DNA of 52,653 nucleotides, from the UHGV virus genome UHGV-0083175. The stretch is one strand, 5' to 3'. A program made the translations under genes and the position numbers. The notes below the pieces were generated by a model. That model was not told the DNA's origin and ran no database searches. It saw nothing but the letters and a program-made list of their open reading frames with translations. This DNA comes from a virus. This document shows positions 10,320 to 33,333 of the stretch, piece after piece. Position 1 is the first letter of the stretch, and each line of letters begins with the position of its first letter.

Positions 10320-10396
10320 CCGCCATTAGCTCATCGGGATAGAGCGCCAGCCTTCGAAGCTGGCTGCGCGGGGTTCGAGTCCTCGATGGCGGTCCA
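10320..10396 (+). tRNA. tRNA-Arg (anticodon UCG)
   Basis: Complete 77-nt cloverleaf: acceptor CCGCCAT/ATGGCGG, anticodon loop CTTCGAA, T-arm CGGGG-TTCGAGT-CCTCG, 3' TCCA. Confidence 0.8.
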
Positions 10397-11168: not shown

Positions 11169-11560
11169 GTGTTAAATCCCTCACAATTCAGTAAGTTGAC
11201 AGTTGCCTGTCAGACTGAGCATTTGTTAAAAAAATTTCGCATGGTGAATCCCCCTGTGCGGAGGGGCGACTGGTGAACGGTATGATCTCTTTGATGATCG
11301 TAAGCGAGAATACGCGGGTTTGGTGTCACCGGGCTGAACTCACCGGGAGGCACCCGGCACCATGCTCATGGTGATACAGAAATGCGGCTTCAGCCCCTCT
11401 CCGGAGGGGCTTTCTTATGGACAAAAAAAGCCCGCGCTGGGAGACGCGGGCGGCAAGGAATAAACAATAAAACGTGAAGTAATACTTCAACTGGCGAATA
11501 ATACCCGACAGTAATCACTCTGCGCAATAGCGCGGCCTTTTTCGAATTGCGGGCTGTAGT
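11169..11560 (+). repeat. structured repeat unit A (with 3' extension shared with unit D)
   Basis: Shares with three downstream units the blocks GTGTTAAATYCCTCACAATTCA, TTGTTAAAAAA, GCATGGTGAATCCCCCTGTGCGGAGGGG, CACCGGGAGGCACCCGGCA and a terminator hairpin. Confidence 0.8.
11239..11416 (+). ncRNA. candidate small RNA, repeat copy A
   Basis: Runs from conserved GCATGGTG to terminator GCCCCTCTCCGGAGGGGC + T-run; 5' CATGGTG can pair with 3' CACCATG; two internal hairpins. Confidence 0.35.
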
Positions 11561-12892: not shown

Positions 12893-13210
12893 AACATATC
12901 CTGTATATTTATGTTGTTACATACAGGCGCTTTTAGTATCTGCCGCACGGCAGTTGTACTTTAGAATAAGATGCTTTTGTGACTGGTGGTGTTGTATCTG
13001 GGGTTAGCCAGGAGGCAGGTTCAGAGAGTCCGGTGGTAATTATGTGTATGCAGTGGTTGTTGCTGTACCGTGGGCAAGTTCTGGAACTGGCTTCGTCCAT
13101 TGTAGATGATTGTTAGCTGGATATCAGTTACCTCATGGAAATGTTAAATGACTCACAATTCGGTTGATGGACTATTGTCTGATCGATGGAAGTCTTGTAA
13201 AAACGAGCCA

Positions 13211-13377
13211 GCATAGTGAATCCCCCTGTGCGGAGGGGCGTCTGACATGGTCTCCATAGCGATGGTCACAATACGCAGATTCAGTAGTCAGGCTGAATCT
13301 ACCGGGAGGCACCCGGCACTATGCTGCTTATGGTGTATACATAGCGATCGGCCCCTCTCCGGAGGGGCTTTTTTTGT
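13211..13377 (+). ncRNA. candidate small RNA, repeat copy B
   Basis: GCATAGTG...CACTATGC long-range pairing (compensatory versus copy A), conserved hairpins, terminator GCCCCTCTCCGGAGGGGC + TTTTTTT. Confidence 0.35.
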
Positions 13378-13469
13378 GCGGGAAAAGGCTGTGTTGTTAA
13401 GTGTTAAATTCCTCACAGTTCAGATGGTTGATGCTTGCCTGTCTGAGGGGGAGTTGTTAAAAAAGTTCT

Positions 13470-13637
13470 GCATGGTGAATCCCCCTGAGCGGAGGGGCAT
13501 ATCAGCGCAGGTGTTTCTACTCTATCCTTTCTGTGCGGGTTCAGGTGCTGATACTGAACTCACCGGGAGGCACCCGGCATCATGCATATGGTTAACAGAC
13601 ACGTAGCGAAGCCCCTCTCCGGAGGGGCTTTTTTATG
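13470..13637 (+). ncRNA. candidate small RNA, repeat copy C
   Basis: GCATGGTG...CATCATGC pairing with one G-U wobble, conserved hairpins, terminator + T-run. Confidence 0.35.
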
Positions 13638-13729
13638 CAGGGAAAAGGCTGTGTTGTGAAATGTTAAATTCCTCACAATTCATGAGGTTGATGATTGTCT
13701 GATTGATGAGGAGTTTGTTAAAAAAAACG

Positions 13730-13884
13730 GCATGGTGAATCCCCCTGTGCGGAGGGGTGATATCGTATCATTTCATGTGTGGCCGACTGATATCACGGAC
13801 ATTTGTTCACCGGGAGGCACCCGGCACCTGCAGTATACAGAGATTAGGCATACATCCAGGCTCCTCATCGCAGGAGCCTTTTTA
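13730..13884 (+). ncRNA. candidate small RNA, repeat copy D
   Basis: Conserved 5' blocks; terminator replaced by compensatory variant GCTCCTCATCGCAGGAGC + TTTTT. Confidence 0.3.
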
Positions 13885-14115
13885 CATGTAAAAAAAACCG
13901 CTCCCGGGAAGAGCGGTTGGCAAGGAAGCAAGGAATAAATAACAAAACGTGAAGTAATTTATTCAGCACCCTAATAATACCTTAGAGTAATCACCTTGCG
14001 CAACTGTAAGGGCGTATTTCTTTTTTGCGGGCTGTTTTTCTGTGTGACTTTTGTGTTTCCGGAGGTCAGTCCGTGCCTTCTCTGACTCAGAACATTATCC
14101 CGGCCGGGAGGATTC

Positions 14116-20881: not shown

Positions 20882-21247
20882 ATGGCTGAGCTTCGTACAC
20901 TCCAGAGCAGAATCAAAACACTGAATACCCGACGGGTGAATATTCTGAAGGGTGAACAGCGTCGTGTCAGTGGCAGTGCACGTGTTTCCCTCAAGCGTCA
21001 TATCTGGCTCAGGGATGCCGGGCAGTGCTGTCTCTGTGGTCGTGTGGTTGACCTCTGTGACAGTGAACTCGATCACCGAATTGCACTTCAGTTCGGTGGT
21101 GGTAATGAGGAGACGAATCTCTGGACGCTCTGTACCGAATGCCATCGACAAAAGTCTGCTCGTGAAGCGGCGGGTGGTATGCCGGACCCGACGCTGCCGG
21201 AGGTGTCCGGAGGTAGTGGCAGAGCGGACGACATCATCGGACTGTAA
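20882..21247 (+). CDS. HNH endonuclease (packaging-associated)
   Basis: CLCGRVVD...ELDHRIALQFGG...NLWTLCTECH HNH motif; immediately upstream of a cos-like site and terS. Confidence 0.8.
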   Translation: MAELRTLQSRIKTLNTRRVNILKGEQRRVSGSARVSLKRHIWLRDAGQCCLCGRVVDLCDSELDHRIALQFGGGNEETNLWTLCTECHRQKSAREAAGGMPDPTLPEVSGGSGRADDIIGL

Positions 21248-21249: not shown

Positions 21250-21312
21250 CGACCGGGGGGGGGGAATCATTCGGGGTAAAAAACGATCGCTCCGGACACC
21301 CCCCCCCCTCTC
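21250..21312. other. candidate cos (cohesive-end packaging) site of the prophage
   Basis: G10 run and complementary C10 run flanking AACGATCGCTCCGGACACC, between HNH and terS; paralogous site at 30051..30112. Confidence 0.45.
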
Positions 21313-21538
21313 ACCCAGAGAAAAAATTCCCGTTTCAGGTCAGTTAACATGTTAACTGGCTTCACGGGCATTTTTGCAGTTTTTATCTTTATTATTCAGT
21401 TTGTTGCGCGGAAAAAATGTTAACAGGCTTTTTCAGCAAATGTTAACCAGGCAGCAGTTAACATTTGCGGCATGAGACGCCGGGAAAAATGGGCTGAACC
21501 ATACCCGGCTGAGTGCATTCTGGACCCGGGAGGAGGCT

Positions 21539-22102
21539 GTGCTGACAACGCAAAAACGAAAATTTGCGCTGGCGCTCATGTCCGGGAAAAACAAAACAGC
21601 GTCAGCCATTGCCGCCGGTTATTCGGCGAAGACAGCCAGGGTTAAAGGCTCGCAGCTGGCAAAAGATCCGGAGGTGCTCGCGTTTATAGCCCGTAAGCAG
21701 TGCGAGACGGTAGAGGTGGATGAGGTTCCTGTTTACCGGCAGAAAAAATCAGAGCAGGAGGATAAACCCCGTCGCCGTGAGGCGGCTGCAATACCACAGC
21801 CGGACGAAACAAATCCGGAGATGCCTCTGCCCGTGGTGATATCTCCTGGTATTGAGTATATGGATGACGGTCTTCCCGATCCGGTGAAAGCGATGGGGCG
21901 TCTTCTGGTGGAGAACATTAATACCGACCCCAGGCTGGCGCTGGATGTGGCTTATAAGCTGGCACAGTTCACGCACCACAAAAAAGGGGATGCCGGTAAA
22001 AAATCGGCAAAAGGTGACGCGGCGAAAAAAGCGGCTAACCGTTTTGCGGTGCCACCACCCCCCCGACTGGTGGTGAATAATGATAATGAGGGCAGCGGAT
22101 GA
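21539..22102 (+). CDS. terminase small subunit
   Basis: N-terminal HTH KRKFALALMSGKNKTASAIAAGYSAKTARVKGSQLAKDPEV; directly upstream of the terL N-terminal fragment. Confidence 0.8.
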   Translation: MLTTQKRKFALALMSGKNKTASAIAAGYSAKTARVKGSQLAKDPEVLAFIARKQCETVEVDEVPVYRQKKSEQEDKPRRREAAAIPQPDETNPEMPLPVVISPGIEYMDDGLPDPVKAMGRLLVENINTDPRLALDVAYKLAQFTHHKKGDAGKKSAKGDAAKKAANRFAVPPPPRLVVNNDNEGSG

Positions 22103-22380
22103 TACCTGTGTGGAGCACGGCCTGCCCGGACTGGGCAGAGCGCCTGAAAAAGGGGCTGTCGATTATTCCGGCTCCGATTTACCCGGACCAGGCCGCACAT
22201 GCCCTGGCGATTTTTAAACAACTGCGGATTGTGGATGCACCGGGCAGCCCGACGTTCGGGGAGTCCTGTGCACCGTGGGTGTTTGATCTGGTGGCTGCCC
22301 TGTTTGGCTCCTACGATGCGCAGACCGGTGTACGCCATATAAAGGAAGTGTTCATTCTGATACCGAAAAATAATAGATAA
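22099..22380 (+). CDS. terminase large subunit, N-terminal fragment (gene split by satellite insertion)
   Basis: 93 codons ending ...KEVFILIPKNNR*; the remaining terL sequence resumes in frame ~9.5 kb downstream (...IPKKNSKSTLAAG...). Confidence 0.7.
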   Translation: MIPVWSTACPDWAERLKKGLSIIPAPIYPDQAAHALAIFKQLRIVDAPGSPTFGESCAPWVFDLVAALFGSYDAQTGVRHIKEVFILIPKNNR

Positions 22381-22543
22381 TAAAAAAACAAATAAAGTGT
22401 TTATTTGTTTTTTTCTACGTTTTATCAAATAGTTATGGTTATCTTTGCTCTATGTTTTTATGTGTTGCTAACGGCAGATTTTAACGCTTTGTTGTTGACA
22501 TGGACTAACCGATGAACCATAAACTTTATCTGTAGGGGCATTT

Positions 22544-23779
22544 ATGCTAATCAAACCGTTAAGCCATGTTGAAGTAAAGAACGCAAAACCAAAGGATAAA
22601 GATTACTCGCTTCATGATGGATTTGGGTTGTTGTTATATGTTTCAAGAAAAGGCTGTAAAACATGGCGTTTCAGGTATCAGCACCCCGACACCAAAAAAA
22701 GACAAACGCTTACCATTGGTCGTTATCCAGATTATTCAATAGCTGAGGCAAGAGAGGAAAGGGATAAAGCAAGGAAATTACTTTCAAGAGGTGTGGATCC
22801 TAATGAGTCTAAGCGCAAGGCAAAATCTGAACGAATTATGCTGAGGTCACAGACCTTTGAAAAAATAACAAATAACTGGTTTGAATTGTATTTAAAGGGA
22901 AGCAGAAGGGAAAATACAGTAAAAACAGTTAGCAGAGTTATTAAAGTTTATATTATTCCTGATTTTGGGGGTTGGACGATTTATGATATACGTGCTGATA
23001 ATGTATTGTCAGTTATTAGAAAATATGACGAAACGCCTGCACAGCAACGAAAAATAGTACAGGTTATGCGTCTTGTTATGGATTATGCCGTGAATGCTGG
23101 AATTGTTCAGTTTAATCCGTTGTCTCGTATTCATAAAGCGCTTCCACCTATGGAAGAGAAAAGCTTTAAGGCGCTGCCCATAGAAAGATTACCCGCTTTT
23201 CTTAATTGGCTTGAGTCAGAAAGTTGTCATCCATCAATAACATATGGTCTTCTTTTTATGATGCTGACAATGACCAGACCTAACGAGGCATTAGGTGCCA
23301 AATGGTCAGAACTGGACGTTGACAGAAAACTATGGACCATTCCAGCAGAGAGGATGAAGGGGAAAAGAGAACACATTATTCCTTTATCTTTACAGGCTGT
23401 TGAAGTGATAATGCGAATGAGAAAAATAAAACAAAGTGAGTATGTTTTTTTTGGTGCTCATTCAGTTGCAAAGGCAATAACGAGAGATGCTATTGTCAGT
23501 AGGGTTAATAAAAGCGAGTTTGCAAAGGAAATGACAGTACACGGATTCAGGTCAATGTGGAGCACATTACTCAATGAAGAGGGATTTAACCCCGATGTTA
23601 TAGAGGCTGCACTTGCACATAAGAGCGGAAATACTGTAAGGGATATTTATAACAGGACGTCATATATTGAACAGCGGGTAATAATGATGCAATGGATAGG
23701 TGATTTTGTCGATTCTGCAAGACGTGGGGTTATTGTTAGGACGCATGGTAAACGCGGTTTAAAATTGGTAAATGAATAA
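22544..23779 (+). CDS. int: tyrosine integrase (P4-type)
   Basis: 411 aa; P4-integrase-type N-terminus and C-terminal catalytic domain (HGFRS...LAH...Y); adjacent to the left junction. Confidence 0.85.
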   Translation: MLIKPLSHVEVKNAKPKDKDYSLHDGFGLLLYVSRKGCKTWRFRYQHPDTKKRQTLTIGRYPDYSIAEAREERDKARKLLSRGVDPNESKRKAKSERIMLRSQTFEKITNNWFELYLKGSRRENTVKTVSRVIKVYIIPDFGGWTIYDIRADNVLSVIRKYDETPAQQRKIVQVMRLVMDYAVNAGIVQFNPLSRIHKALPPMEEKSFKALPIERLPAFLNWLESESCHPSITYGLLFMMLTMTRPNEALGAKWSELDVDRKLWTIPAERMKGKREHIIPLSLQAVEVIMRMRKIKQSEYVFFGAHSVAKAITRDAIVSRVNKSEFAKEMTVHGFRSMWSTLLNEEGFNPDVIEAALAHKSGNTVRDIYNRTSYIEQRVIMMQWIGDFVDSARRGVIVRTHGKRGLKLVNE

Positions 23780-23791
23780 GGTGTACAATAT

Positions 23792-23998
23792 ATGAATGAT
23801 ATAAATAATAGTCAGATTTTGTTGCGTGATGATGTGATGAAAAAATTGCGATACAACAACGCGGCTGCTTTTCATATGTTTTTTAACAGAACGCCGGACT
23901 TTCCAAAGCCCTTCAAGATAGGCCGTCGCAATGCCTGGTATGAAGAGGATGTGCAAAATTGGCTTGATGAACAGCGAAGAAAAGCCCTTGAGGAGTGA
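23792..23998 (+). CDS. alpA: AlpA-family excisionase / transcriptional regulator
   Basis: 68 aa; FPKPFKIGRRNAWYEEDVQNWL matches the AlpA/Xis HTH signature; immediately downstream of int. Confidence 0.7.
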   Translation: MNDINNSQILLRDDVMKKLRYNNAAAFHMFFNRTPDFPKPFKIGRRNAWYEEDVQNWLDEQRRKALEE

Positions 23999-24056
23999 AC
24001 GTAAAAGAACAGGCGTCCTTAAAGGTCGCCTGTTATGTAGTAGTGGAATATTACAA

Positions 24057-24419
24057 TCATGTTTTTTTTGATGCTATGTAAGCAAGAATGCACGGTTCCT
24101 TTGCCAGTTGTGACCCTTTCGATCTGGCTGTTTTCGCACTGTATCCAGCAAGAATAGCGCACTGTGTCTGATTCAGCCCTTTCATCATGTAATCAGCAAA
24201 TTTCTTTTTTTGCTTCGTCAGCTTGTTTGTTTGGTCGTTTTTATCATCGTTTGCGGTAAAAACATTAGATGTGGTCTTAAGCTGATGTTTACAGGCTTCA
24301 ATTACCCACGATGAGAAGTTGGAGTGCGCTTTATCTCTTTCTATGCGTTTTTCAATATCAGCTAATAAGTCAGGCGGGAAGCGGATCCCCTTAAGTATCG
24401 CTTTGCGTGTTTTGTCCAT
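24057..24419 (-). CDS. RHH domain fused to a terS-like HTH domain (putative satellite regulator)
   Basis: N-terminal GIRFPPDLLADIEKRI...NFSSWVIEACKHQL (RHH); C-terminal KKKFADYMMKGLNQTQCAILAGYSAKTARSKGSQLAKEP near-identical to the helper TerS N-terminus. Confidence 0.55.
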   Translation of the reverse strand: MDKTRKAILKGIRFPPDLLADIEKRIERDKAHSNFSSWVIEACKHQLKTTSNVFTANDDKNDQTNKLTKQKKKFADYMMKGLNQTQCAILAGYSAKTARSKGSQLAKEPCILAYIASKKT

Positions 24420-24692
24420 TCATGGCCCCAAAATAAGTAGTGTTAACTTGTTACTATTTAACAGTTTTTGAGGGTGTGTTAAACAAAAAACTGGTTTGTG
24501 TTTAACGAAAATCGCTTCGTGTTAAACACGTTGCCTAGTTAGTGGGGACAGATGACGAGTTGATCAAACCTGCCGGATAACAGGCAAAGAAAAGGCCACC
24601 TGTCACGGTGGCCCTTCGACACAAATTTCGCGTTATCCCCAACGCATGAGCATCGCCGACAATGCCACATTTACGGCTGGTGGACAAGGCTA

Positions 24693-24920
24693 TCAGCCAG
24701 GCGGTCGGTTTTTAGTGGCTTTTAACCGCCGTGGGTATTTCTCGACAAAATCTTCAAGGGCAAATTTTTCTGGTGGCATTAAGCGCGGCGCTGGTGGTGG
24801 TATTTTTGTTCTGGTTAGTTCTTCCTCAACTCTGGCGCAGGCTTCTGACTGCCTTTGCCGGATGATTTCATCATCTTGCGTTTGCGTGTCTTGTATTGGT
24901 GATAGTGTGTTGTTGGTCAT
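24693..24920 (-). CDS. hypothetical protein
   Basis: 75-aa minus-strand ORF downstream of the small RHH gene; weak RBS. Confidence 0.3.
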   Translation of the reverse strand: MTNNTLSPIQDTQTQDDEIIRQRQSEACARVEEELTRTKIPPPAPRLMPPEKFALEDFVEKYPRRLKATKNRPPG

Positions 24921-24977
24921 GATACTGCCCTGTAAAGCAATGCGCCGTAGTACCTCACACCACGGCGCTGATAGTGA

Positions 24978-25157
24978 TTATTCTGATTCTTTGGCCTTGC
25001 GGCGCTGGCGGCGTTTGATCTCGCCTTTTGCTGCCGTAACTAGAAATCCGGCGGTACTTTCGCCAGGTTCTTTAAGTTGCTCAATATCGGTCATTACCTC
25101 ATGCGGGATTCTGACCGTTGTCATTTGTGATTTTGCGTTCTTTGCACCTGTTGCCAT
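24978..25157 (-). CDS. small DNA-binding protein (possible satellite repressor)
   Basis: 59-aa ORF with AGGAGA RBS (MATGAKNAKSQMTTVRIPHEVMTDIEQL...); faces a divergent promoter region containing inverted repeats. Confidence 0.45.
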   Translation of the reverse strand: MATGAKNAKSQMTTVRIPHEVMTDIEQLKEPGESTAGFLVTAAKGEIKRRQRRKAKESE

Positions 25158-25177
25158 TTCTGGTTCTCCTGATAATC

Positions 25178-25270
25178 GGTGTATTTCAGTATACGCAAAA
25201 AAAAAGATAAAAAAAGTCTTGCGGTGTATTTCACCTGAATGTAGATTTAAAAATGAAGGTGAAATACACC
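25178..25270. promoter_or_regulatory. operator-like inverted repeats in the satellite divergent control region
   Basis: GGTGTATTTCACC (25223-25235) and its exact reverse complement GGTGAAATACACC (25258-25270), plus a third half-site GGTGTATTTCAG at 25178. Confidence 0.45.
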
Positions 25271-25343
25271 TAAAACAACAACGCCCCGCAGTGATGGGAA
25301 CACATACGGGGCGTCTAACCAACAACGTAAACGAGGAGCCGTT

Positions 25344-25541
25344 ATGGTTGCCGTAAATCATATACCACACCTTGTACACACACAAACGGCCTTTGTGTGG
25401 CGTTTTCTGGCACTGAGTGCCGGAGAATCTCAAATCATCCACGTAACCGCCTGGACGGAACGCGAAGCGCGTAACCGTTGCCCGTCCGGTTGTGTTGCTG
25501 TATTTGCCGCCCGTATTCGTCAGGAGGTGCGCCATGATTAA
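25344..25541 (+). CDS. hypothetical protein (first gene of the satellite rightward operon)
   Basis: 65-aa ORF with GAGGAG RBS. Confidence 0.35.
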   Translation: MVAVNHIPHLVHTQTAFVWRFLALSAGESQIIHVTAWTEREARNRCPSGCVAVFAARIRQEVRHD

Positions 25542-25746
25542 TCTGTCACTTACTGACCTTAACCGCATTCAGTTTCGTGAGAAATTCACAGGGCAGCTAC
25601 TGGTCAATGTGGATAAAGGTCGCGTGGTGTGTAATTACCACTTACCAGATGAAGCAATTGTCGCCACAAGGGAATCATTACAGGAAATCACAAAACGTGC
25701 CGGAATGATTAACACGAATATTCAGGGGATGCTTTATGCACAATAA
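25534..25746 (+). CDS. hypothetical protein
   Basis: Internal ATG with CAGGAGGTG RBS; 70 aa. Confidence 0.4.
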   Translation: MINLSLTDLNRIQFREKFTGQLLVNVDKGRVVCNYHLPDEAIVATRESLQEITKRAGMINTNIQGMLYAQ

Positions 25747-25975
25747 AACCACACCGGACGCAGCCGCCGAAGCCATCAAAACGCTGATGCACGCGCTGAT
25801 TGATATTTCTGTTATCGCGGACAGGGCACATAAGCACGCCACCAGCGAAACAGAATATGCCGGTGCTTTCGTTCCTCACTCACTGGCTGTCATGCAATTT
25901 AGTGCTGATACGGCGCTGAATGAGGCCAAAGCTATCCTGATTGCTGATTGTGAAAATGGGGGGGGTTATGCGTGA
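25736..25975 (+). CDS. hypothetical protein
   Basis: 79-aa ORF, translationally coupled to neighbours. Confidence 0.35.
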   Translation: MHNKTTPDAAAEAIKTLMHALIDISVIADRAHKHATSETEYAGAFVPHSLAVMQFSADTALNEAKAILIADCENGGGYA

Positions 25976-26201
25976 TGATCGTTTTAATTCCCTGAAACAG
26001 GAATTTTCCGGCGTTCCTGATGATGCGGCTGATGCGCTTTCGTCAATGCCAGAACTTATTAGAGCGGCTTTTTTCTTACTTTCCACGAGAGAATATAAAT
26101 CAACGGGGCTTGATGTACTGAATATCGCCGCCGATTATGCGGAATATGTGGCAGAGGCGCGTTATAGAAGAAAATTTCCTGAGGATGTAAGCCATGCGTG
26201 A
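25968..26201 (+). CDS. hypothetical protein
   Basis: Internal start MRDDRF... of ORF 25941..26201. Confidence 0.35.
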   Translation: MRDDRFNSLKQEFSGVPDDAADALSSMPELIRAAFFLLSTREYKSTGLDVLNIAADYAEYVAEARYRRKFPEDVSHA

Positions 26202-26427
26202 TATTTACCACCAAACAATAGACCGCGCATTTCTTGCACTTTCTCACAGTGAAAACATGATGGAAATATTGCGCATATGGCTTGAAACACTTGGCGACAA
26301 TGAACGCGACAAACAAAAATCAAGAATTGCCACGGCATTAATAACGCTTCTTGAGCCTGTAATAATGGAACTGCAAGAAATAGATCTATTGCACGACAGA
26401 TATAAAGAACAGCACATCGGAGAATAA
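26194..26427 (+). CDS. hypothetical protein
   Basis: 77-aa ORF overlapping the upstream stop. Confidence 0.35.
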   Translation: MRDIYHQTIDRAFLALSHSENMMEILRIWLETLGDNERDKQKSRIATALITLLEPVIMELQEIDLLHDRYKEQHIGE

Positions 26428-26432
26428 AAATA

Positions 26433-26732
26433 ATGAAACTTAAATATTCTGGCTTAACTGCCAGTGGCAACACTCACCCTAAATTTACGCGCGGTGATAT
26501 TTACCGCGACCAGTACGGCGGCACGGTAATGATTAAGGGCGTGGCGGGACGGTGCGTAACTTACCGCCGTGAAGGTTACGAATATGATTGCGTGATGCCT
26601 GTTTATCAGTTCCGGCGTGATTTTTCTCTGGTACAGACCGCGCCGCATAACGTGCCCACCAGCAACGCCAGGGCACGGGCAAACATCCAGAAGCTGAAAA
26701 CCATGATTAACGGATTCAGGGGTAAAAAATGA
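26433..26732 (+). CDS. hypothetical protein
   Basis: 99-aa ORF immediately upstream of the primase-helicase gene. Confidence 0.4.
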   Translation: MKLKYSGLTASGNTHPKFTRGDIYRDQYGGTVMIKGVAGRCVTYRREGYEYDCVMPVYQFRRDFSLVQTAPHNVPTSNARARANIQKLKTMINGFRGKK

Positions 26733-28126
26733 AACTGGCACCGAATGTAAAACTGTTACCGAAAGATAAACACACCGAAGCGGTTATTTTTGCGGGTGAT
26801 AATGCTCACTCATTTGCAGAGCACTACATCATTGCACAGGCCAAAAAAGCAGGCGATCCAGTCCCTCCCGTTTACCTGGGGCGTTATCAGTTAAGCGAAC
26901 TGGATAACTTGCAGATTGTTGATAAAGGTCGGTTCAGGGCGAAAGTGATACGTGCCGGAAATATTGACGAAGTGCAGTTGTTAACCATCGCCACGAAACT
27001 GGCAATCGCAGGAGTCCAGGAAGCGCGCCTGTTTTCTGAAAATTTCGAATTGCTGGAGGAATGGAGCGACCAGCTTACACGGCTTAGGGAGACATGGGAA
27101 CGCGGGGAAAGCCTGAGCCACCAGCGAAAAACAAAGCTACCGATGAGCGTTGGATCTGCCGGATACGACACGCAATTAGATTACGTGGTAAAGGGGATTA
27201 TTCCGGCATCGTCGCTATGCAGCATATACGGGGCGAGCGGTTCATATAAATCGTTCCTTGCGGGTTCGTGGGCGTGTCACGTTTCCACGGGCCGCCAGTG
27301 GGGAGGCCGCAGGGTTGCACATGGTGCAGTTCTCTATGTGGTTGGTGAAGGCGGTATTGGTGTTCCGCGTCGTGTAAAAGCCTGGGAGGTTGTGCACGGT
27401 GAGCAGGTGAAAAATCTGTATCTGGTAAACCGTCCCATCTTTCCGGCTGTCCCGCTTGATGTTGATGAAATGGTTATCGCTGCCCGCCAGGTGGAACGGG
27501 AAACCGGTAAACCTGTACGCATGATTATTCTGGATACGCTGGCGCGTTGCTTTGGCGGCAATGATGAAAATGACTCCCGCGACATGGGGGCATTTATCCG
27601 TGGTTGTGACGAGCTTAAACGGCGCACAGGGGCCACTGTGCTGGTGGTTCACCATTCCGGCAAGGATGAAACAAAGGGGGCGCGTGGTTCCAGTGCATTT
27701 CGTGCTTCGCTGGATGCTGAATACCGGATACGCAGGGAGGACGCAGGAAGCGAAGCGCTGGTTATCTCATGCACCAAAATGAAGGACGCGGAGGAACTCA
27801 AAGAGGCTGCCTATGATTTGCGGGTGGTGGAGCTTTTTACCGACGCTGACGGGGAGTTAATCACGTCGCTGGTGGTGGTGGATAAGTCGCGCCCTCCCGT
27901 TGAACTGGAGCGCATCGAAGAGGCAGGCAACAAGACGGAAAACCATACCGCGCTATGGGGGTGTATCCGTTCACGCACACAGAACGGCGACAAGTGCACG
28001 ATCCCGCTGTTACGTGATGACATGAAAAAACTGGGGTACGAAATAAAGCACTTCCGGCGCTGGCTGGGCAAGCTGGAAAAAGACGGCGTTATCTATGTTG
28101 ACGGCGATGATGTAGGGCCACTGTAA
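26729..28126 (+). CDS. satellite replication protein (RecA-fold primase/helicase-type ATPase)
   Basis: 465 aa; Walker A-like GASGSYKSFLAG, Walker B region MIILDTLARCFGGNDEND and VLVVHHSGKD. Confidence 0.75.
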   Translation: MKLAPNVKLLPKDKHTEAVIFAGDNAHSFAEHYIIAQAKKAGDPVPPVYLGRYQLSELDNLQIVDKGRFRAKVIRAGNIDEVQLLTIATKLAIAGVQEARLFSENFELLEEWSDQLTRLRETWERGESLSHQRKTKLPMSVGSAGYDTQLDYVVKGIIPASSLCSIYGASGSYKSFLAGSWACHVSTGRQWGGRRVAHGAVLYVVGEGGIGVPRRVKAWEVVHGEQVKNLYLVNRPIFPAVPLDVDEMVIAARQVERETGKPVRMIILDTLARCFGGNDENDSRDMGAFIRGCDELKRRTGATVLVVHHSGKDETKGARGSSAFRASLDAEYRIRREDAGSEALVISCTKMKDAEELKEAAYDLRVVELFTDADGELITSLVVVDKSRPPVELERIEEAGNKTENHTALWGCIRSRTQNGDKCTIPLLRDDMKKLGYEIKHFRRWLGKLEKDGVIYVDGDDVGPL

Positions 28127-28328
28127 AAAGTGGGGGGCAAAAGTGGTGGGCATGGGGAATTTAACAAAATTTAAACACGACCCCCCACTTTTTGACCTGT
28201 ATACATCCCAAAAAGTGGGGAGCAAAAAAATACTTATGAAACAGCATGATAAAAATTACAAATCCCACGCCTTTAACGAGATGGGGAATTGTGAAAAGTG
28301 GGGAGTAAAAGTGGGTATAGGTGGGGAG
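28127..28328. repeat. iteron cluster (candidate satellite replication origin)
   Basis: Repeated AAAGTGGGG(A/G) motifs at 28127, 28140, 28210, 28294, 28307, 28320 plus inverted copy CCCCCCACTTTTTG at 28181, directly after the replication gene. Confidence 0.5.
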
Positions 28329-28580
28329 ATGACACAAAAACGCAGAGACAGAACACAGCCAAAATATAAAGCGTTAGACATGACAGAGCACGCTTTAAAG
28401 GTGGCAATCAGAACGATAGACCGCCACGCGGGGGAAGGATACGCGAAGGAACATCCCGACCTGATAAGCGCATTCATGACCACAGCGGCGGCAAACTTTG
28501 CCACGCTGACAGAACGGGAGATTGCCGAAGCGGAACAGGTAACAACCATCAACGTTAAAACCGGAGAGTTGGAATCATGA
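28329..28580 (+). CDS. hypothetical protein
   Basis: Internal start MTQKRRD... chosen because upstream codons lie in the iteron region. Confidence 0.35.
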   Translation: MTQKRRDRTQPKYKALDMTEHALKVAIRTIDRHAGEGYAKEHPDLISAFMTTAAANFATLTEREIAEAEQVTTINVKTGELES

Positions 28581-28882
28581 GCGAACCAAAATTTGGTGAA
28601 AAACTTTACAAGCACAACGGACGGATCACGATTCTGCAAATAAGCGCAGCTACACCAGGCTGGTGGGTTGAAACAGACGAAGGATCCTCACCCGTGGCAT
28701 CATGGGCGCTTTGTGCGCTTAGTTACCCTGACCGCGATGTGTATCAGGATATTCTGCCTGTGATATCCACTGACAAAGGCATGAAACCCGTAGACATCAA
28801 AAACATGGGTTTTCAGTGCGTAATGCTCACTGAAAAAATGATGGAAGAGATGAAAAAGAACAACGCCGGATCGCTTCACTGA
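28577..28882 (+). CDS. hypothetical protein
   Basis: 101-aa ORF overlapping the upstream stop. Confidence 0.4.
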   Translation: MSEPKFGEKLYKHNGRITILQISAATPGWWVETDEGSSPVASWALCALSYPDRDVYQDILPVISTDKGMKPVDIKNMGFQCVMLTEKMMEEMKKNNAGSLH

Positions 28883-28891
28883 GGTGGCAAT

Positions 28892-29290
28892 ATGACAGCA
28901 CAAATTGCAGCTTACGGGCGGCTGGTGGACGACCCGCAGGTAAAACAGACCAGCAAGGGCACACCGATGACGCTGGCGCGTATGGCGGTATCTTTGCCAT
29001 GCAGCCAGGCACAGGACGGACAGGCGACGTTATGGTTATCGGTCATCGCATTTGGCAAACAGGCCGACTTCCTGGCTAAACATCAAAAAGGAGATGTTGC
29101 CAGCGTATCCGGCACGATGCAGGTAAGCCAGTGGACAGGCCAGAACGGCGAAACGCGGCAGGGCTGGCAGGTTATCGCAGACAGCGTAATCAGTGCCCGA
29201 GGCGGGAACAGACGCAAAACCACAGGCACACAGGGTAATCAGCCACCAGCGGGAGGCGATGACCCTTACGGTGATGGTATTCCGTTCTGA
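28892..29290 (+). CDS. ssb: single-stranded DNA-binding protein
   Basis: OB-fold-like core (LARMAVS...LWLSVIAFGKQAD...) and acidic C-terminal tail ending DDPYGDGIPF. Confidence 0.7.
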   Translation: MTAQIAAYGRLVDDPQVKQTSKGTPMTLARMAVSLPCSQAQDGQATLWLSVIAFGKQADFLAKHQKGDVASVSGTMQVSQWTGQNGETRQGWQVIADSVISARGGNRRKTTGTQGNQPPAGGDDPYGDGIPF

Positions 29291-29300
29291 GGGGGTGAGG

Positions 29301-29573
29301 ATGGTACATGACCGCATAGCGGAGGAACTCGAGGCGAAAGGATTTTACCGGAGGGCGGCGGCGCGATGGGGTGAAGTCATGCAGCTGGTGGAGACAGACA
29401 AGGAACGGTATCAGGTTACGATGCGACGGCTGGAATGTTCCAGGAAGGCACAGAAGCCACCGGAGCCGCCGGATAACTTCGGAGACCTGAGAAAGGCAGT
29501 CGATCGCACTTATGCTGAAATGGGTATAGATGGTGCAGGCGATGAAGTATGGCGTAATTACCCAGACAGCTAA
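29301..29573 (+). CDS. PerC-family transcriptional regulator-like protein
   Basis: Internal ATG 29301; AEELEAKGFYRRAAARWGEVM resembles the PerC/Pch N-terminal motif. Confidence 0.45.
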   Translation: MVHDRIAEELEAKGFYRRAAARWGEVMQLVETDKERYQVTMRRLECSRKAQKPPEPPDNFGDLRKAVDRTYAEMGIDGAGDEVWRNYPDS

Positions 29574-29579
29574 GCACAT

Positions 29580-29603
29580 AGCCGGAGCAATCCGGCTTTT
29601 TTT
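29580..29603 (+). terminator. rho-independent terminator
   Basis: AGCCGGA-gcaa-TCCGGCT stem followed by TTTTTTT. Confidence 0.6.
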
Positions 29604-29691
29604 CGATCTCACATATCTTTAAAAATGGTTGATTGATTATAATCTATCGAAAATAATGATTATGAGATGATAAGCATCAGGAGGAAACAAA

Positions 29692-29886
29692 GTGGAACAG
29701 ATAAAGCAAAGCGCTACCGTGATGATTGATCACGAGATCCTAAACGAGCTTAAAAAACTTCAATTCGATGTTATTCGCCGGATGAATGAAGCTGGTATAT
29801 ACGGCAGAGCCGCCACGCCAACAGTAGGCCATCTTGCTCGCGTGCTGTTACGCGAACGCCTGGGCATTGCAACAGGTGAGGAATAA
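29692..29886 (+). CDS. hypothetical protein
   Basis: GTG start after AGGAGGA RBS; 64 aa. Confidence 0.35.
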   Translation: MEQIKQSATVMIDHEILNELKKLQFDVIRRMNEAGIYGRAATPTVGHLARVLLRERLGIATGEE

Positions 29887-29888
29887 CA

Positions 29889-30050
29889 ATGGTTATCACA
29901 GAACGCGAGGCAAGCATCATTAAAGCCATTGGCGAGGAAACAAGAGACACGATAGCGCCATTAATGGAAAAGATCGCAGAGCTTGAGACACGAATAAACA
30001 AGCTGAGTGATGAAGTTGAAGGCCTGATCTCGTTACTCGGTGAGCAATGA
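29889..30050 (+). CDS. small protein resembling the N-terminus of the helper head-associated repeat protein
   Basis: 53 aa, MVITEREASIIKAIGEE... versus MNERELSIIRALGEEF... at 36907; ends at the satellite cos-like site. Confidence 0.35.
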   Translation: MVITEREASIIKAIGEETRDTIAPLMEKIAELETRINKLSDEVEGLISLLGEQ

Positions 30051-30112
30051 CAGGGGGGGGGGAGTGTTCCGGCCGGAAAGTCGATCGCCCTGGACACCGC
30101 CCCCCGTCTCAT
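30051..30112. other. candidate cos site of the satellite
   Basis: G-run, GTCGATCGCCCTGGACACC core and C-run, paralogous to 21250..21312. Confidence 0.45.
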
Positions 30113-30180
30113 TCGTAGAAAATTTTGCTTTTCAAAAAAGTTACACGAAAAGTTACACCCCCTCAAAACGAGGTTTTTGC

Positions 30181-30669
30181 ATGGCATTAACGACCAAAAA
30201 AAAGCGGTTTGCTGATGCGTTATCAAGGGGCGCAAATCCCACGGAAGCCGCTATACATGCGGGATACAGCGAAAAGACCGCAAGGGTTAAAGGCTGGCAG
30301 CTATCCAACGATCCTGAGGTGAAAAAGTATCTTAAGGTTGTCACTCCTGATGTAACTTTTCAGGTTACAAAACCGAAAAAAGTTACAAAGAAAGTTACCG
30401 AAAAAGTTACACCGGAACGGGCATCAATCAGCACCATAGAACGGATGGACAACGGCTTGCCCGACCCTATCAAAGCTATGGGCAGGATACTGGCTGACAA
30501 CATAGACACAGATCCAAAACTGGCTTTAGATGCCGCGTTTAAGCTGGCCCAGTTCACCCACCGCAAGATCGGCAGCATTGGGAAAAAAGAGGTTAAAAAA
30601 CTCAATGCCGCGAATGTCTCCTCAAATCGGTTCCCCATCCCTAAGCCACCAACAGGCTTAAAACACTGA
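30181..30669 (+). CDS. terminase small subunit (satellite copy)
   Basis: Internal ATG 30181; N-terminal HTH KKRFADALSRGANPTEAAIHAGYSEKTARVKGWQLSNDPEV and C-terminal LALDAAFKLAQFTH homologous to the helper TerS. Confidence 0.75.
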   Translation: MALTTKKKRFADALSRGANPTEAAIHAGYSEKTARVKGWQLSNDPEVKKYLKVVTPDVTFQVTKPKKVTKKVTEKVTPERASISTIERMDNGLPDPIKAMGRILADNIDTDPKLALDAAFKLAQFTHRKIGSIGKKEVKKLNAANVSSNRFPIPKPPTGLKH

Positions 30670-30680
30670 GGTAGCGAACT

Positions 30681-30842
30681 ATGAACGAATACATCACAGA
30701 CCCTATTGATGTACTCACGGAAATCATGAACGACAAGCAGCAGCCAACCGAAATACGGTTACAGGCTGCCGCTGTTCTGATGCCATATTTTCACGAAACT
30801 CTAACCCCATGTTACCAGGAGGAAGAAGATGATGATTTCTAA
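30681..30842 (+). CDS. hypothetical small acidic protein
   Basis: 53-codon ORF between satellite terS and the MCP-like gene; not in the supplied track. Confidence 0.3.
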   Translation: MNEYITDPIDVLTEIMNDKQQPTEIRLQAAAVLMPYFHETLTPCYQEEEDDDF

Positions 30843-31755
30843 AAACATGAAAGGCGTGTCGGCAGTTCGCGCCGCCAGCGTGCTTACATCGTGTAAATTC
30901 AGCCATGCAGACGCAATTGAAATGACGAAAAAAAATGATCCGGCAGTATCGAAATTTCTTGAAAAATCCATTGTTGCCGGAATGACTACGGATAATATGC
31001 CGTCGCTGGTGGCAGAGCCGATAGTAAGAGAGCTTGGCGAGTATATTTTTTCGCAGTCTGTACCAGGCAAGCTAATCAGCAGCGCGCTGAATCTTCCGTT
31101 TGGCGCAAAATTGCAGTCAATATCAGGCAAGGGTAGTAAATGGCTTAAAGAAGCCGAAGAAATCCCTGTCAAAGAGGGAGAAGTAAACGAAAGTGCGCTA
31201 AAACTGTGCAAACTTGGCGCTATTGTGATGCTGAATAACGAGCTAATCAAATTTAGCACCCCTGGTACCAATTCAGCGATCAGAGACTTGATCACATCGG
31301 AATCGGTGAAAGAAATAGATAAAAAATTTCTTTCCAGTGACCAGGAGTTGGCGGGCGTATCCCCTGAGGGCGTGCTTAATGGTGCTGATGAGGCCGAAAA
31401 CTTCATAGAGCTTTTCAAAAAGCACATAGCGAACGGTAACACGCTTGCCACGTCGTCGCTAATCTTGCCCGTAGAAAACGCCTTACAGCTTACTGATGCT
31501 GAGTTCTGGCAGATAGAGCTTTTGAGAATACCGGTAATTGTGAGCGAACAGGCGGATCGCATGATGCTGATAGACGCTCAAAAGCTGATTATTAACGTTG
31601 AAGCCACGGTTATAACCCCAACTGATGAGGCGGTAATAAAAACCGAATCAGGGACGGTTAGCCTTTTCCAGAATGACGCTACAGCGTTCAGGGCAATCAC
31701 CTATTGCGGATGGCAAAAACTCGATAAGGCCGTCACCGTTCTGGCGCAATCTTGA
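30829..31755 (+). CDS. major capsid protein homolog (HK97-fold MCP domain only)
   Basis: 308 aa with AGGAGGA RBS; aligns along its length with the MCP portion of the helper protease-MCP fusion (AGMTTD/AGTTTD, LGAIVMLNNELIKFSTPG / VSAIAVLTEELIRFSSPA, IPVIVSEQ / LPVIVSQY). Confidence 0.65.
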   Translation: MMISKNMKGVSAVRAASVLTSCKFSHADAIEMTKKNDPAVSKFLEKSIVAGMTTDNMPSLVAEPIVRELGEYIFSQSVPGKLISSALNLPFGAKLQSISGKGSKWLKEAEEIPVKEGEVNESALKLCKLGAIVMLNNELIKFSTPGTNSAIRDLITSESVKEIDKKFLSSDQELAGVSPEGVLNGADEAENFIELFKKHIANGNTLATSSLILPVENALQLTDAEFWQIELLRIPVIVSEQADRMMLIDAQKLIINVEATVITPTDEAVIKTESGTVSLFQNDATAFRAITYCGWQKLDKAVTVLAQS

Positions 31756-31974
31756 TGTAGTGCGCCGCATTACTGGTTATGTGAATGCGGCGCATAGGGC
31801 CTACGAAAAACAAAATTAGTTTACGTTATCTTATGTAACCATATTTAACGGAGAAGACTAAAACGCGGACTATTTAGTGTCAGTGCGTGAGCCTAACAGC
31901 ATAATAAACAAGATATTAAGATAGCTTTACGCATACCCAAAAAAAACAGCAAGTCCACGCTGGCTGCCGGGATC

Positions 31975-33333
31975 ATGATGACGGCGCTGTTACTGAACTG
32001 GCGGCAGGCGGCGGGCTACACCATTCTGGCCCCGACCGTGGAGGTGGCGGCTAATGCCTTCAATCCTGCCAGGGATATGGTACGACGGGACGATGATCTG
32101 GATGACCTCTGTCAGGTGCAGACACATATCCGGACCATCACCCATCGGGTGACGGACACCACCCTGAAGGTGGTGGCAGCCGATCCGAATACGGTGTCCG
32201 GTATCAAGTCCGTGGGGACACTGATTGATGAACTGTGGCTGTTTGGCAAGCAGTACAAAGCGGAGGACATGTTACGTGAAGCCATAGGTGGCCTTGCCTC
32301 CCGCCCGGAAGGGTTTGTGGTGTATACGACCACCCAGTCGAATGAACCGCCCGCCGGGGTGTTCAGACAGAAACTGCAGTACGCCCGGGATGTGCGCGAC
32401 GGCAAAATTCATGATCCGCACTTTCTGCCGGTGATATTTGAGCATCCGCCGGAGATGGTGGAGCGCGGTGAGCACCTGCTGATGGAAAACCTCGCCATGG
32501 TCAATCCGAATCTCGGTTATTCGGTGGATGAGGCCTTTCTGTACCGGGAGTATCGTAAAGCCCGGGAAGCCGGTGAAGATACATTCCGGGGGTTCATGTC
32601 AAAACACGCCAATGTGGAAATTGGTCTTGCCCTGCGTTCTGACCGCTGGGCGGGTGCGGATTTCTGGGAGCAGCAGGGCAGGCGCGTCAGCCTGGACGAT
32701 ATTCTGCAGCGCGCTGATGTGGTGACGGTGGGGATTGACGGCGGGGGCCTGGATGATCTGCTGGGAATGTACGTGATTGGCCGTGACAGGGAAACCCGCG
32801 AATGGCTGGGCTGGGGCCATGCCTGGGCGCATGAAACCGCGGTGGTCAGACGGAAGAGTGAGGCATCCCGTTTTCAGGATTTTGTGGCCTGTGGAGACAT
32901 GACGATTGTCCGTCGGGTCGGGGATGACACGGCGGAAGTGGCGGAGTATGTGCGTCGTATTCATGAGGCTGAGTTACTGGATCATATCGGTATTGACCCG
33001 TCAGGTGTGGGGCAGATTCTGGATTCACTGGCGGAAGCCGGGATCCCCGACGGAATTGTTGTGGGGATAAGCCAGGGCTGGAAGCTGGGCGGGGCCATCA
33101 AAACCACCGAGCGCAAACTGGCTGAGGGAGTGCTGGTGCATGGTGGTCAGCCACTGATGGCCTGGTGCGTTGGCAATGCCCGGGTGGAGCCTAAAGGTAA
33201 CGCCATCCTTATTACCAAACAGGCCAGCGGACGGGGGAAAATTGACCCGCTGATGGCGCTGTTCAATGCGGTATCCCTGATATCCCTGAATCCGGAGCCC
33301 AAAAAGAAAGAATATGCGGTTTTTTTCATATAA
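31975..33333 (+). CDS. terminase large subunit, C-terminal portion (split gene)
   Basis: Frame open upstream to 31897 with no start codon, encoding ...IPKKNSKSTLAAGIMM (Walker A-like); LIDELW Walker B, nuclease motifs VTVGIDGGG and IGIDPSG. Confidence 0.7.
   Translation: MMTALLLNWRQAAGYTILAPTVEVAANAFNPARDMVRRDDDLDDLCQVQTHIRTITHRVTDTTLKVVAADPNTVSGIKSVGTLIDELWLFGKQYKAEDMLREAIGGLASRPEGFVVYTTTQSNEPPAGVFRQKLQYARDVRDGKIHDPHFLPVIFEHPPEMVERGEHLLMENLAMVNPNLGYSVDEAFLYREYRKAREAGEDTFRGFMSKHANVEIGLALRSDRWAGADFWEQQGRRVSLDDILQRADVVTVGIDGGGLDDLLGMYVIGRDRETREWLGWGHAWAHETAVVRRKSEASRFQDFVACGDMTIVRRVGDDTAEVAEYVRRIHEAELLDHIGIDPSGVGQILDSLAEAGIPDGIVVGISQGWKLGGAIKTTERKLAEGVLVHGGQPLMAWCVGNARVEPKGNAILITKQASGRGKIDPLMALFNAVSLISLNPEPKKKEYAVFFI

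Follow-up and report, generated by a model that had tools for sequence, protein, structure and literature searches.

A putative satellite cos site with a helper-type cleavage core and its own TerS and motif array, carried by a PICI-type element inside an HK97-type Escherichia coli prophage

The virus genome UHGV-0083175 (52,653 nt; this whole stretch is called the window below) is an Escherichia coli lambdoid prophage of the BP-4795 / 2851 / 1717 type, and its gene for the large terminase subunit (terL) is interrupted by a satellite of the phage-inducible chromosomal island (PICI) type. Prophage and satellite each carry a cos-like site upstream of a gene for a small terminase subunit (terS). 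We consider it likely that the prophage copy (site A) is the HK97-type cos of the helper phage and that the satellite copy (site B) is a satellite cos, in which a helper-type cleavage core is combined with the satellite's own TerS and motif array. Because AAAGTTACAC repeats replace the GTTAAC palindrome of the helper from +33 onwards, and because the accompanying TerS belongs to a different specificity clade, site B seems to be a private address for packaging that is set on a shared cleavage core, rather than a plain copy of the helper site.

Two sites of one architecture in the window

The original prediction for this DNA had placed two paralogous cos-like sites at 21250..21312 and 30051..30112, each with a G-run, a CGATCGC core and a C-run upstream of terS, and an HNH endonuclease beside the prophage copy. 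These elements are indeed present at those positions, the gene adjoining site A matches Pfam HNH (PF01844), and both sites follow the same architecture, with the satellite copy being homologous to the prophage copy. The intervals were too short, however, as the proposed functional sites reach to ~21468 in the helper and to ~30411 in the satellite.

The two sites stand out clearly from the rest of the window. Only two C-runs and four G-runs of at least 7 nt occur in its entire 52.6 kb, and the three 10-nt G or C homopolymers all lie at sites A and B. Neither the composite pattern G7-N25-33-GGACACCNCCCCCC nor the core of 31 nt, GGACACC..TCTCA..AGAAAA, was found in the window outside these two sites; the expectation was 0.00 for each (100 dinucleotide-preserving shuffles). 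Alignment of the two sites, which had been proposed as a check, gave 73% identity for the core that spans G-run to A-tract, compared to a mean of 48% and a maximum of 59% for random 75-mers of the window. Identity was 49% in the 100 nt upstream of the sites and 60% over the first 55 terS codons of helper and satellite. By these comparisons, the core of site B is conserved above both the background and the adjacent coding DNA, and it is retained across independent lineages.

Position of the cut in the helper site

The order HNH-cos-terS-terL at site A is that of the HK97-type layout. The position of the cut can be read from the relative Lys8385Vzw (MT225100.1), which is 96% identical to the window in this region. 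Its record starts at the equivalent of position 21310 and ends in GGACAC followed by CGCCCCCCCT, the equivalent of 21300-21309. Lys8385Vzw was sequenced from induced particles, and PhageTerm placed it among the cos phages, with 3' cohesive ends and CGCCCCCCCT as its cos sequence (PMC7946995). The mapping of virion ends suggested in the original prediction is thus available by proxy, for the prophage copy only, and the ends lie at the equivalent of site A.

Since the record of Lys8385Vzw starts and ends at the equivalent of this 10-mer, what had been described as a C-run is the cohesive end itself. In site A, GGACACC occupies 21294-21300 and C10 occupies 21299-21308; nicks are predicted behind 21299 (bottom strand) and behind 21309 (top strand). 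Site A is almost certainly the helper cos, cut at the C-rich 10-mer. The notion that the sites are built from complementary G- and C-runs had to be given up, as the C-rich 10-mer is the 3' cohesive end and the G-run stands apart from it, ~35 bp inside the right genome end. Downstream of the cut, 5 of the 14 GTTAAC motifs in the window are concentrated in 21343-21462.

The enzyme itself points in the same direction. TerL of this family, taken from the uninterrupted gene of Lys8385Vzw, aligns with HK97 TerL gp2 at 23% identity over 490 aa (E 2e-11), and the Hafnia homologue matches PF03354 and PF20441. Judged by these matches, the family TerL belongs to the HK97/Terminase_1 lineage.

Family-wide anatomy of the site and its relation to HK97

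We scanned IMG/VR and one genome per species with the core patterns, and filtered and aligned the matches. A common architecture emerged from about 50 independent sites that range from E. coli to Acinetobacter. It consists of a G-run (6-11 nt), a spacer, GGACAC, a C-rich 10-nt overhang, CTCAY, four variable bases, AGAAAA(AA/TT)TT and a TerS-clade-specific motif that starts at +33/+34. GGACAC is invariant in all family members. The spacer between the G-run and GGACAC diverges in sequence but keeps a length of 27-30 nt, with a mode of 29 nt (44 of the 56 pattern matches). The hosts comprise Escherichia, Kosakonia, Enterobacter, Citrobacter, Atlantibacter, Buttiauxella, Hafnia and Acinetobacter, and all non-satellite examples with recovered flanks are phages with the gene order HNH-terS-terL-protease/major capsid protein (MCP)-portal.

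Two of the elements emphasised originally turned out to be local. CGATCGC is found in both window sites but is absent from the sites of a Hafnia phage, a Salmonella satellite and a plasmid, and was thus rejected as a defining core element. The C-run holds for the window prophage, but a pure C-run is peculiar to that prophage among the ~50 related sites. Within this set, the overhang reads CGCGCCCCCT, CGCCCCCCGT or CGCCCCCCCT, most commonly CGCCCCCCGT or CGCGCCCCCT, and the helper overhang of the window, CCCCCCCCCT, is unique. Phages with 97%-identical TerL and HNH carry differing overhang variants, and the enzymes therefore probably take the position of the cut from the blocks on either side and do not read the overhang itself. 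We also considered an 11-nt perfect inverted repeat, GGTGTCCGGAG/CTCCGGACACC (21202-21212 / 21290-21300), whose left arm is HNH coding sequence and whose right arm is the block just before the cut. It occurs in E. coli-type phages only and without compensatory changes; this repeat is probably incidental.

The most distant example, a prophage of Acinetobacter johnsonii CIP 64.6 (L154, ~6840-6950), shows G7, a 29-nt spacer, GGACAC, CACCCCCCAT, CTCAC, an A-tract and GTTAAC-like motifs. Given that its TerL is only ~46% identical, the shared architecture indicates that this cos layout is old.

HK97 has 10-nt 3' overhangs and an HNH gene adjoining cos, and cos cleavage by its TerL is stimulated by the HNH protein (PMC9410871, PMC11331095). 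The window helper resembles it (gp74 HNH, gp1 TerS, gp2 TerL) in the order HNH-cos-terS-terL with a homologous TerL, in a 10-nt G/C-rich 3' overhang that begins with CGCC in both, in a G-run 32-35 nt inside the right end and in an A/T-tract that follows the cut after a few bases. In contrast, the window TerS proteins are of the Terminase_2 family without similarity to HK97 gp1, the HNH proteins lack significant pairwise similarity, and the candidate motifs for TerS occupy +33 to +50 here as opposed to +15 to +29 in HK97.

The G-run deserves separate mention. The HK97 genome ends (NC_002167; L146 483-491, L145 1-60) carry a G9 run 32 nt before the terminal 10 nt CGCCGCCAAA, which makes the G-run a common feature of HK97-type cos sites. 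We found no discussion of this G-run, or of sequences upstream of the HK97 cut, in the HK97 packaging literature searched. The structure of HK97 termination places the cut at the TerL-portal interface, and a genetic link between lambda cosQ and the portal is cited in the same study (PMC10359639). A G-run 33-45 bp upstream of the cut would sit in the portal channel at termination. This position, together with the lambda cosQ-portal genetics, makes a cosQ-like role plausible; we put the G-run forward as a tentative candidate for a cosQ-like termination element, with considerable doubt.

The satellite site combines a helper-like core with its own motifs

In site B, GGACACC lies at 30092-30098 and CCGCCCCCC at 30097-30105. 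Its similarity to phages is limited to 30053-30134, i.e., the G-run, spacer, core and A/T-tract, with 78-83% identity. The suggestion that the satellite mimics the helper packaging site therefore holds for the cleavage core, from about -45 to +20, but not beyond, since from +33 the site has its own motifs and is accompanied by a TerS gene of the satellite. Independent satellite lineages have kept the core and the 29-nt spacing, and so has a ColE1-like plasmid with unrelated flanks. The predicted overhang CGCCCCCCGT is also found in helper-type phages with ~97%-identical TerL (the L001 helper, L041, L043 and L059) and in phi330. On this basis, site B is probably a working satellite cos that is cut by the helper enzymes.

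The proximal spacer of the satellite is 70% identical to that of E. coli helper-type phages and 39% to that of the Hafnia phage, whose TerS is nevertheless the closest phage TerS to that of the satellite (58%). With a spacer of the E. coli helper type but a TerS nearest to the Hafnia phage, the module looks mosaic, with a foreign TerS/motif pair attached to a core like that of E. coli helpers.

Motif type follows the TerS clade

The TerS proteins of the family fall into two groups according to their helix-turn-helix (HTH) sequence. Wherever the HTH reads ..KGSQL.. or ..QGSRL.., GT(T/A)AAC is found at +34 and +42, in every such site; wherever it reads ..KGWQL.. or ..KGCQL.., GTTACAC is found at +33/+34, in all five such lineages. 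The pairing has no exceptions among ~25 distinct sequences. In an AlphaFold2 model of the satellite TerS, the recognition helix comprises residues 31-42 (predicted local distance difference test 85-90) and is followed by a disordered linker at 57-84; the variable S/W/C residue falls in this predicted recognition helix. The KGW/CQL group contains E. coli satellites, a degenerate satellite, the Salmonella satellite, the ColE1-like colicin plasmid and a true Hafnia alvei phage. As this last member is a genuine phage, the motif tracks the TerS clade and not the status of its carrier as phage or satellite. We lean towards the view that the specificity of site B would come from the satellite TerS together with the GTTACAC motifs.

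Further motifs lie within the satellite terS itself, at 30351..30411, where they encode the VT/KVT repeats of the predicted disordered linker. In five lineages with 51-63% identity to the satellite TerS, every KVT is written AAA-GTT-AC(A/C), and those copies that read GTA-ACT correspond to the motif in inverted orientation. Fixed codons in a predicted disordered linker indicate constraint at the DNA level, and it appears that a packaging signal is written inside the terS coding sequence.

The two window TerS proteins are best conserved in their C-terminal third, which is compatible with both of them binding the same TerL. A search of PDB sequences with the satellite TerS gave no matches.

A PICI-type satellite inside helper terL

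The element that carries site B is ~10 kb long, with a unidirectional int, an AlpA-like gene, a replication module and no lysis or tail genes, as in PICIs. It lies inside, and has the same orientation as, a helper late gene, terL, and is bounded by precise att sites, as in helper-embedded PICIs (Table 1). The att core of ~17 bp falls in the Walker-A codons of terL. Joining 22099-22376 to 31950-33333, as excision would do, yields an intact TerL of 553 aa with the Walker A sequence IPKNNSKST. Because the insertion splits these codons, there should be no functional helper terminase until the satellite excises. The satellite begins 1.07 kb downstream of the helper cos and has the same orientation as the helper.

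Among the satellite open reading frames (ORFs) scanned, there was no HNH or TerL homologue and no portal, protease or connector gene. Neither did any of them match a winged-helix or Rpp-like family, a provisional result as the search had no dedicated Rpp profile. The 53-aa ORF directly upstream of site B was considered as an Rpp-like adaptor and rejected, having weak coiled-coil-like PDB matches only and no family match. A second 53-aa ORF, after terS (30681-30842), has a weak PHROG 'TerS' match; it was rejected as a TerS, being without similarity to either window TerS.

The satellite capsid-family protein is 22-25% identical to the MCP part of helper-type protease-MCP fusions. This 308-aa capsid homologue recalls Ccm of SaPIbov5, a capsid size redirector. 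Searches for relatives found nothing in species-representative genomes, and in IMG/VR returned relatives of 94-99% identity only.

A third TerS-type HTH is encoded on the minus strand of the satellite (24057-24419), within a 120-aa fusion to a DUF3950/YlcI-type domain. This HTH is 66% identical to the N-terminus of the helper TerS and 53% identical to the satellite TerS. Upstream of the gene (24440-24530) lie TGTTAAC, GTGTTAAAC, GTGTTTAAC and GTGTTAAACAC, which are of the same class as the GTTAAC palindromes of the helper. The fusion could be a satellite regulator or a decoy for helper TerS sites; in strain 90-3040, its equivalent is broken into pseudogene fragments.

Table 1 Features of the helper and satellite packaging regions (positions in the window)
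Feature	Position	Strand	Remarks
Site A, helper HK97-type cos	21255-21358	+	
Helper HNH endonuclease gene	20882..21247	+	Directly upstream of helper cos; Pfam HNH PF01844, E 7.5e-07; annotated as such in near-identical locus L001
Helper G-run, G10	21255..21264	+	Candidate cosQ-like signal; conserved upstream cos element
Helper 29-nt spacer	21265..21293	+	CGATCGC at 21284-21290; length kept, sequence variable in family
Helper GGACAC	21294..21299	+	Directly 5' of cohesive end; invariant in family
Helper 3' cohesive end (predicted), 10 nt	21300..21309	+	CCCCCCCCCT; from ends of Lys8385Vzw
Helper CTCAC + A-tract	21310..21328	+	AGAAAAAATT at 21319-21328; downstream half of cleavage core; conserved in phage, satellite and plasmid lineages
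Helper 18-bp perfect palindrome	21341..21358	+	CAGTTAACATGTTAACTG, starts +32 to +34; GTTAAC-type motif; proposed TerS site
Helper distal GTTAAC cluster	21415..21468	+	Three GTTAAC (21419, 21442, 21457), including inverted repeat GCAAATGTTAAC/GTTAACATTTGC
Helper terS, 187 aa	21539..22102	+	GTG start after GGAGGAGG; Pfam Terminase_2; equivalent gene annotated by RefSeq in L001
Helper terL, 5' fragment	22099..22376	+	Ends at attL (core ~22360-22376); collinear with intact Lys8385Vzw terL to 22376
Helper terL, 3' part	31950..33333	+	After attR (core ~31933-31949); TerL_nuclease PF20441
Satellite, PICI-type, 9,573 bp	22377..31949	+	Inside terL; gene content, att sites, restored TerL
Satellite int	22544-23779		
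Satellite AlpA-like HTH gene	23792-23998		Below Pfam cutoff
Satellite DUF4222 gene	26433-26732		
Satellite RepA-like helicase gene	26729-28126		
Satellite single-stranded DNA-binding protein (SSB) gene	28892-29290		
Satellite 53-aa ORF	29889-30050		Directly upstream of site B
Site B, putative PICI-type satellite cos	30053-30158	+	
Satellite G-run, G10	30053..30062	+	29-nt spacing to GGACAC, as in helper copy
Satellite 29-nt spacer + GGACAC	30063..30097	+	CGATCGC 30082-30088; GGACAC 30092-30097
Satellite 3' cohesive end (predicted), 10 nt	30098..30107	+	CGCCCCCCGT; positional homology to mapped helper-type end
Satellite CTCAT + A/T-tract	30108..30126	+	AGAAAATTTT at 30117-30126
Satellite direct repeats (two)	30134..30158	+	AAAAGTTACAC, period 12, first GTTACAC at +33; proposed TerS site
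Satellite terS, 162 aa	30181..30669	+	47% identical to helper TerS; Pfam Terminase_2
Array inside satellite terS	30351..30411	+	One inverted TGTAACT, one GTTACA (codons CAG-GTT-ACA), three AAAGTTAC(A/C); proposed distal TerS-binding array
Satellite capsid-family protein, 308 aa	30829..31755	+	Possible size-redirection factor; Pfam Phage_capsid; tblastn

Comparison with known satellites

Several satellite types share part of this arrangement. EcCICFT073-type cos PICIs with Rpp have helper-like cosQ and cosN but a different cosB, by which packaging is redirected to the satellite (PMC6092414, PMC6739421; Fillol-Salom 2018, 2019). The window satellite is likewise a Gram-negative PICI that keeps a helper-like core and differs in the recognition part. 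However, the helpers of those islands are of the lambda/phi80 type, with Nu1-type TerS, 5' overhangs and no HNH partner, and the adaptor Rpp reprogrammes the helper TerS in islands without a TerS of their own, whereas here a complete satellite TerS is combined with an HNH-type system and 3' overhangs. Rpp is without effect on HK97 (PMC6092414, PMC6739421), and the window helper has a Terminase_2 TerS with an HNH partner, which sets it apart from the helpers of the Rpp type.

The cos-type Staphylococcus aureus pathogenicity islands (SaPIs) SaPIbov4 and SaPIbov5, with the helpers phi12 and phiSLT, make small capsids by means of the capsid homologue Ccm (PMC5052747). They resemble the window satellite in having a helper-type cos of an HNH-dependent cos phage and a distant capsid homologue; in the window, the capsid gene adjoins the cos/terS module. 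Unlike it, they retain only a 3' terS remnant, use the helper TerS and have a near-exact helper cos, and they are Gram-positive and not embedded in a helper. An intact 162-aa satellite TerS and a motif array different from that of the helper distinguish site B from the plain cos copies of P4 and SaPIbov5. The pac SaPIs, in turn, pair a satellite TerS homologue with the helper TerL for satellite-specific packaging, as proposed here, but they package by headful from pac without defined ends. In the present case, cos packaging with a shared cleavage core is indicated by the lineage of TerL and by the ends mapped in the relative.

Helper-embedded PICIs (HE-PICIs) were described by Tommasini, Mageeney and Williams 2023 (PMC10111431), with 14 sites. 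The window satellite agrees with them in lying in and co-oriented with a helper late gene that is restored on excision, in its int/AlpA/replication modules and in a late zone with a capsid gene; the model element 11capE differs in lacking terS and in sharing with its helper a 258-bp, 90%-identical cos region of the lambda type. The cf-PICIs of the EcCIEDL933 type are also associated with HNH-dependent cos-type packaging modules, but have HNH, TerS, TerL, portal, protease, capsid and connector genes of their own, compared to only TerS and a capsid homologue in the window satellite. As it is intermediate between Rpp PICIs, pac SaPIs, cos SaPIs and cf-PICIs, we class the element as a variation on known satellites. 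No description of its cos/TerS pair was found in the literature searched, a limited search that is no proof of novelty.

Proposed packaging of helper and satellite

On induction, excision of the satellite would restore terL, and the helper would provide TerL, HNH and the remaining capsid and tail machinery. Helper TerL and HNH would nick helper DNA 10 nt apart around 21300-21309 and thereby create 3' cohesive ends. On satellite concatemers, the satellite TerS would bind the GTTACAC arrays and direct TerL of the helper, together with HNH, to the helper-like core, which would be nicked on both sides of 30098-30107. The helper TerS, reading GTTAAC palindromes, should ignore the satellite, and the satellite TerS should ignore the helper. 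Five satellite units (47.9 kb) come near the 50.95-kb genome of Lys8385Vzw, and packaging of pentamers is thus possible. Another possibility is a redirection of capsid size by the capsid homologue, in the manner of Ccm in SaPIbov5 (PMC5052747).

Several observations weigh against this interpretation. The pairing of TerS clade with motif amounts to essentially one evolutionary switch (S vs W/C) and could be a matter of phylogenetic inertia. In HK97, the TerS site (+15 to +29; PMC9410871, PMC11331095) corresponds in position to the A-tract of the window sites, which helper and satellite have in common; should TerS really bind at the A-tract, the +33 motifs may have a different role, e.g., as regulatory operators. 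The overhang CCCCCCCCCT of the window helper differs from that of the satellite at two positions, and the helper end was taken from a relative, for which PhageTerm calls may err by a few bases. A unit of 9.6 kb is no obvious fit to a ~51-kb capsid, and either pentamers or small capsids are needed. Finally, the helper may be defective, given that in the related strain 90-3040 the helper terS has an internal stop and the portal gene is frameshifted.

Alternative explanations

The complete helper terminase, including the helper TerS, might cut site B as in P4 and SaPIbov5, leaving the satellite TerS redundant or even interfering, e.g., through mixed oligomers. The stretch from -45 to +20 common to both sites, which includes the A-tract at the position of the HK97 TerS site, would fit such pure mimicry, and two TerS proteins with 47% identity and similar C-terminal parts could conceivably form mixed oligomers. 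We nevertheless regard it as unlikely, because all helper-clade sites and none of the satellite-clade sites have the helper-type GTTAAC palindrome at +34/+42, and because an intact, conserved terS accompanies the site in E. coli and Salmonella satellites and in the Hafnia phage, as does a related, C-terminally divergent terS in the plasmid. The motifs downstream of the core could also be transcriptional operators for HTH regulators instead of TerS sites, with helper/satellite specificity residing elsewhere or being absent. The DUF3950-HTH fusion, which lies beside TGTTAAC/GTGTTAAAC in what appears to be its own promoter region, indicates that the TerS-type HTH class is used outside terminase as well, and one weak promoter-like match on the minus strand overlaps the distal GTTAAC cluster of the helper. 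Against this, the first motif lies at a fixed +33/+34 from the nick in all lineages, as expected of a packaging signal and not of an operator, and the motif type tracks the TerS HTH encoded directly downstream; we give the operator explanation very little credence.

Site B might instead be a non-functional remnant of a captured phage HNH-cos-terS segment, with the satellite being moved in another way or not at all. PICIs are known to capture helper late genes (PMC10111431), and degenerate copies of the module do exist, such as L137, which contains insertion sequence (IS) elements and lacks the capsid gene. A relic would hardly be expected to keep the core and the 29-nt spacing in diverged satellites, in a plasmid with unrelated flanks and even in the degenerate copy, or to have a core better conserved than the adjoining coding DNA, and the module occurs at >=95% identity in 220 of 5,426 complete E. 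coli genomes. This explanation is therefore quite improbable. Less probable than any of these is a structural role of the runs, in which a hairpin or cruciform, in the DNA or in a late transcript, would act as terminator, attenuator or recombination signal. Site A does contain a perfect 10-nt inverted repeat of G10 and C10, and site B has 20-nt arms that are 80% complementary, but the fold energies were no better than those of shuffled controls (z = -0.83 and -0.80), and no terminator-like or relevant promoter-like site was found; Rfam had no match at site A or B. In nearly all relatives the C-run is interrupted and the G-run varies between 6 and 11 nt, and pairing between the runs is accordingly not maintained across the family. 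Moreover, the mapped virion end of the relative lies within one of the supposed arms. The hairpin, cruciform and terminator readings were rejected on these grounds. A shared cleavage core with a satellite-specific TerS and motif array is thus the reading that we prefer.

Distribution of the module and significance

The site A region has counterparts in 94 phage records, the majority of them from Stx1a and Stx2c converting phages. The window prophage has no stx gene; the stx position holds the gene of an AraC-family regulator (241 aa), followed by a gene for a SASA/NanS-p-type esterase (14116-16053). Rfam matches in the late-regulatory region comprise a sok-like RNA, two tRNAs and four copies of the sRNA STnc100. 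The positions of these RNAs and of the AraC-family regulator gene are 4801-4975, 10236-10393, 11210-11422, 13182-13889 and 11799-12524.

Many of the E. coli genomes with the satellite cos/terS module are from serogroups of Shiga toxin-producing E. coli (STEC; O157, O111, O121). The same late module is also found in chromosomal PICIs, by tRNA-Pro/yejO and, in O157:H7, between cspD and clpS. In Salmonella enterica (GCA_007645875.1, L141 1-7993), satellite SSB, small ORFs, cos, terS and the capsid homologue are followed by a helper-type protease-MCP fusion and portal, and the cos consists of G9, a 29-nt spacer and the overhang CGCCCCCCCT. This arrangement probably represents a second helper-embedded case, this time from a different genus.

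The plasmid version is represented by two contigs of 13.5 and 11.7 kb (L143, the longer locus, and L144; GCA_018047205.1, GCA_902849365.1). At ~5719-6510 they contain a complete cos core (G7, 29 nt, GGACAC, CGCGCCCCCT, CTCAC, A-tract), accompanied by repeats of GTTACAC and by a terS of the satellite clade. Both contigs also have genes for Rop and for a PvuII-type restriction-modification system, and L143 additionally codes for a colicin/cloacin-type toxin along with immunity and lysis functions. From this gene content, the element looks like a natural cosmid-like plasmid packageable by these phages. A search of PLSDB for the cos/terS plasmid gave only matches to the 35-bp core.

Taken further, these findings raise the possibility, which we hold to be somewhat short of even, that a widespread Gram-negative satellite family, together with one or more ColE1-type plasmids, makes use of HK97-type cos phages that depend on HNH, relatives of Stx phages in STEC among them, through a split signal. 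One part would be the cleavage core of the helper (G-tract, 29 nt, GGACAC, overhang, A-tract), kept to allow cutting by helper TerL and HNH, and the other an orthogonal TerS/GTTACAC pair, defined by the W/C recognition helix, unread by the helper TerS and partly written in the linker codons of terS, while the G-tract would act in a cosQ-like manner from within the portal channel at the stall of the motor.

Hijacking of cos phages is known to proceed either by copying the whole cos, as in P4 and SaPIbov5, or by reprogramming the helper TerS with an adaptor, as with Rpp. The window locus suggests a third way for HNH-dependent cos phages, in which the cleavage core is shared and TerS and its motifs are owned by the satellite. 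For the HK97 model system, it offers defined targets in the G-tract at fixed distance, the invariant GGACAC/CTCAY flanks and the +33 motif. As the module is common and the helper-type phages include many Stx1a and Stx2c converters, such satellites could affect the yield of Stx phages and the movement of satellite genes.

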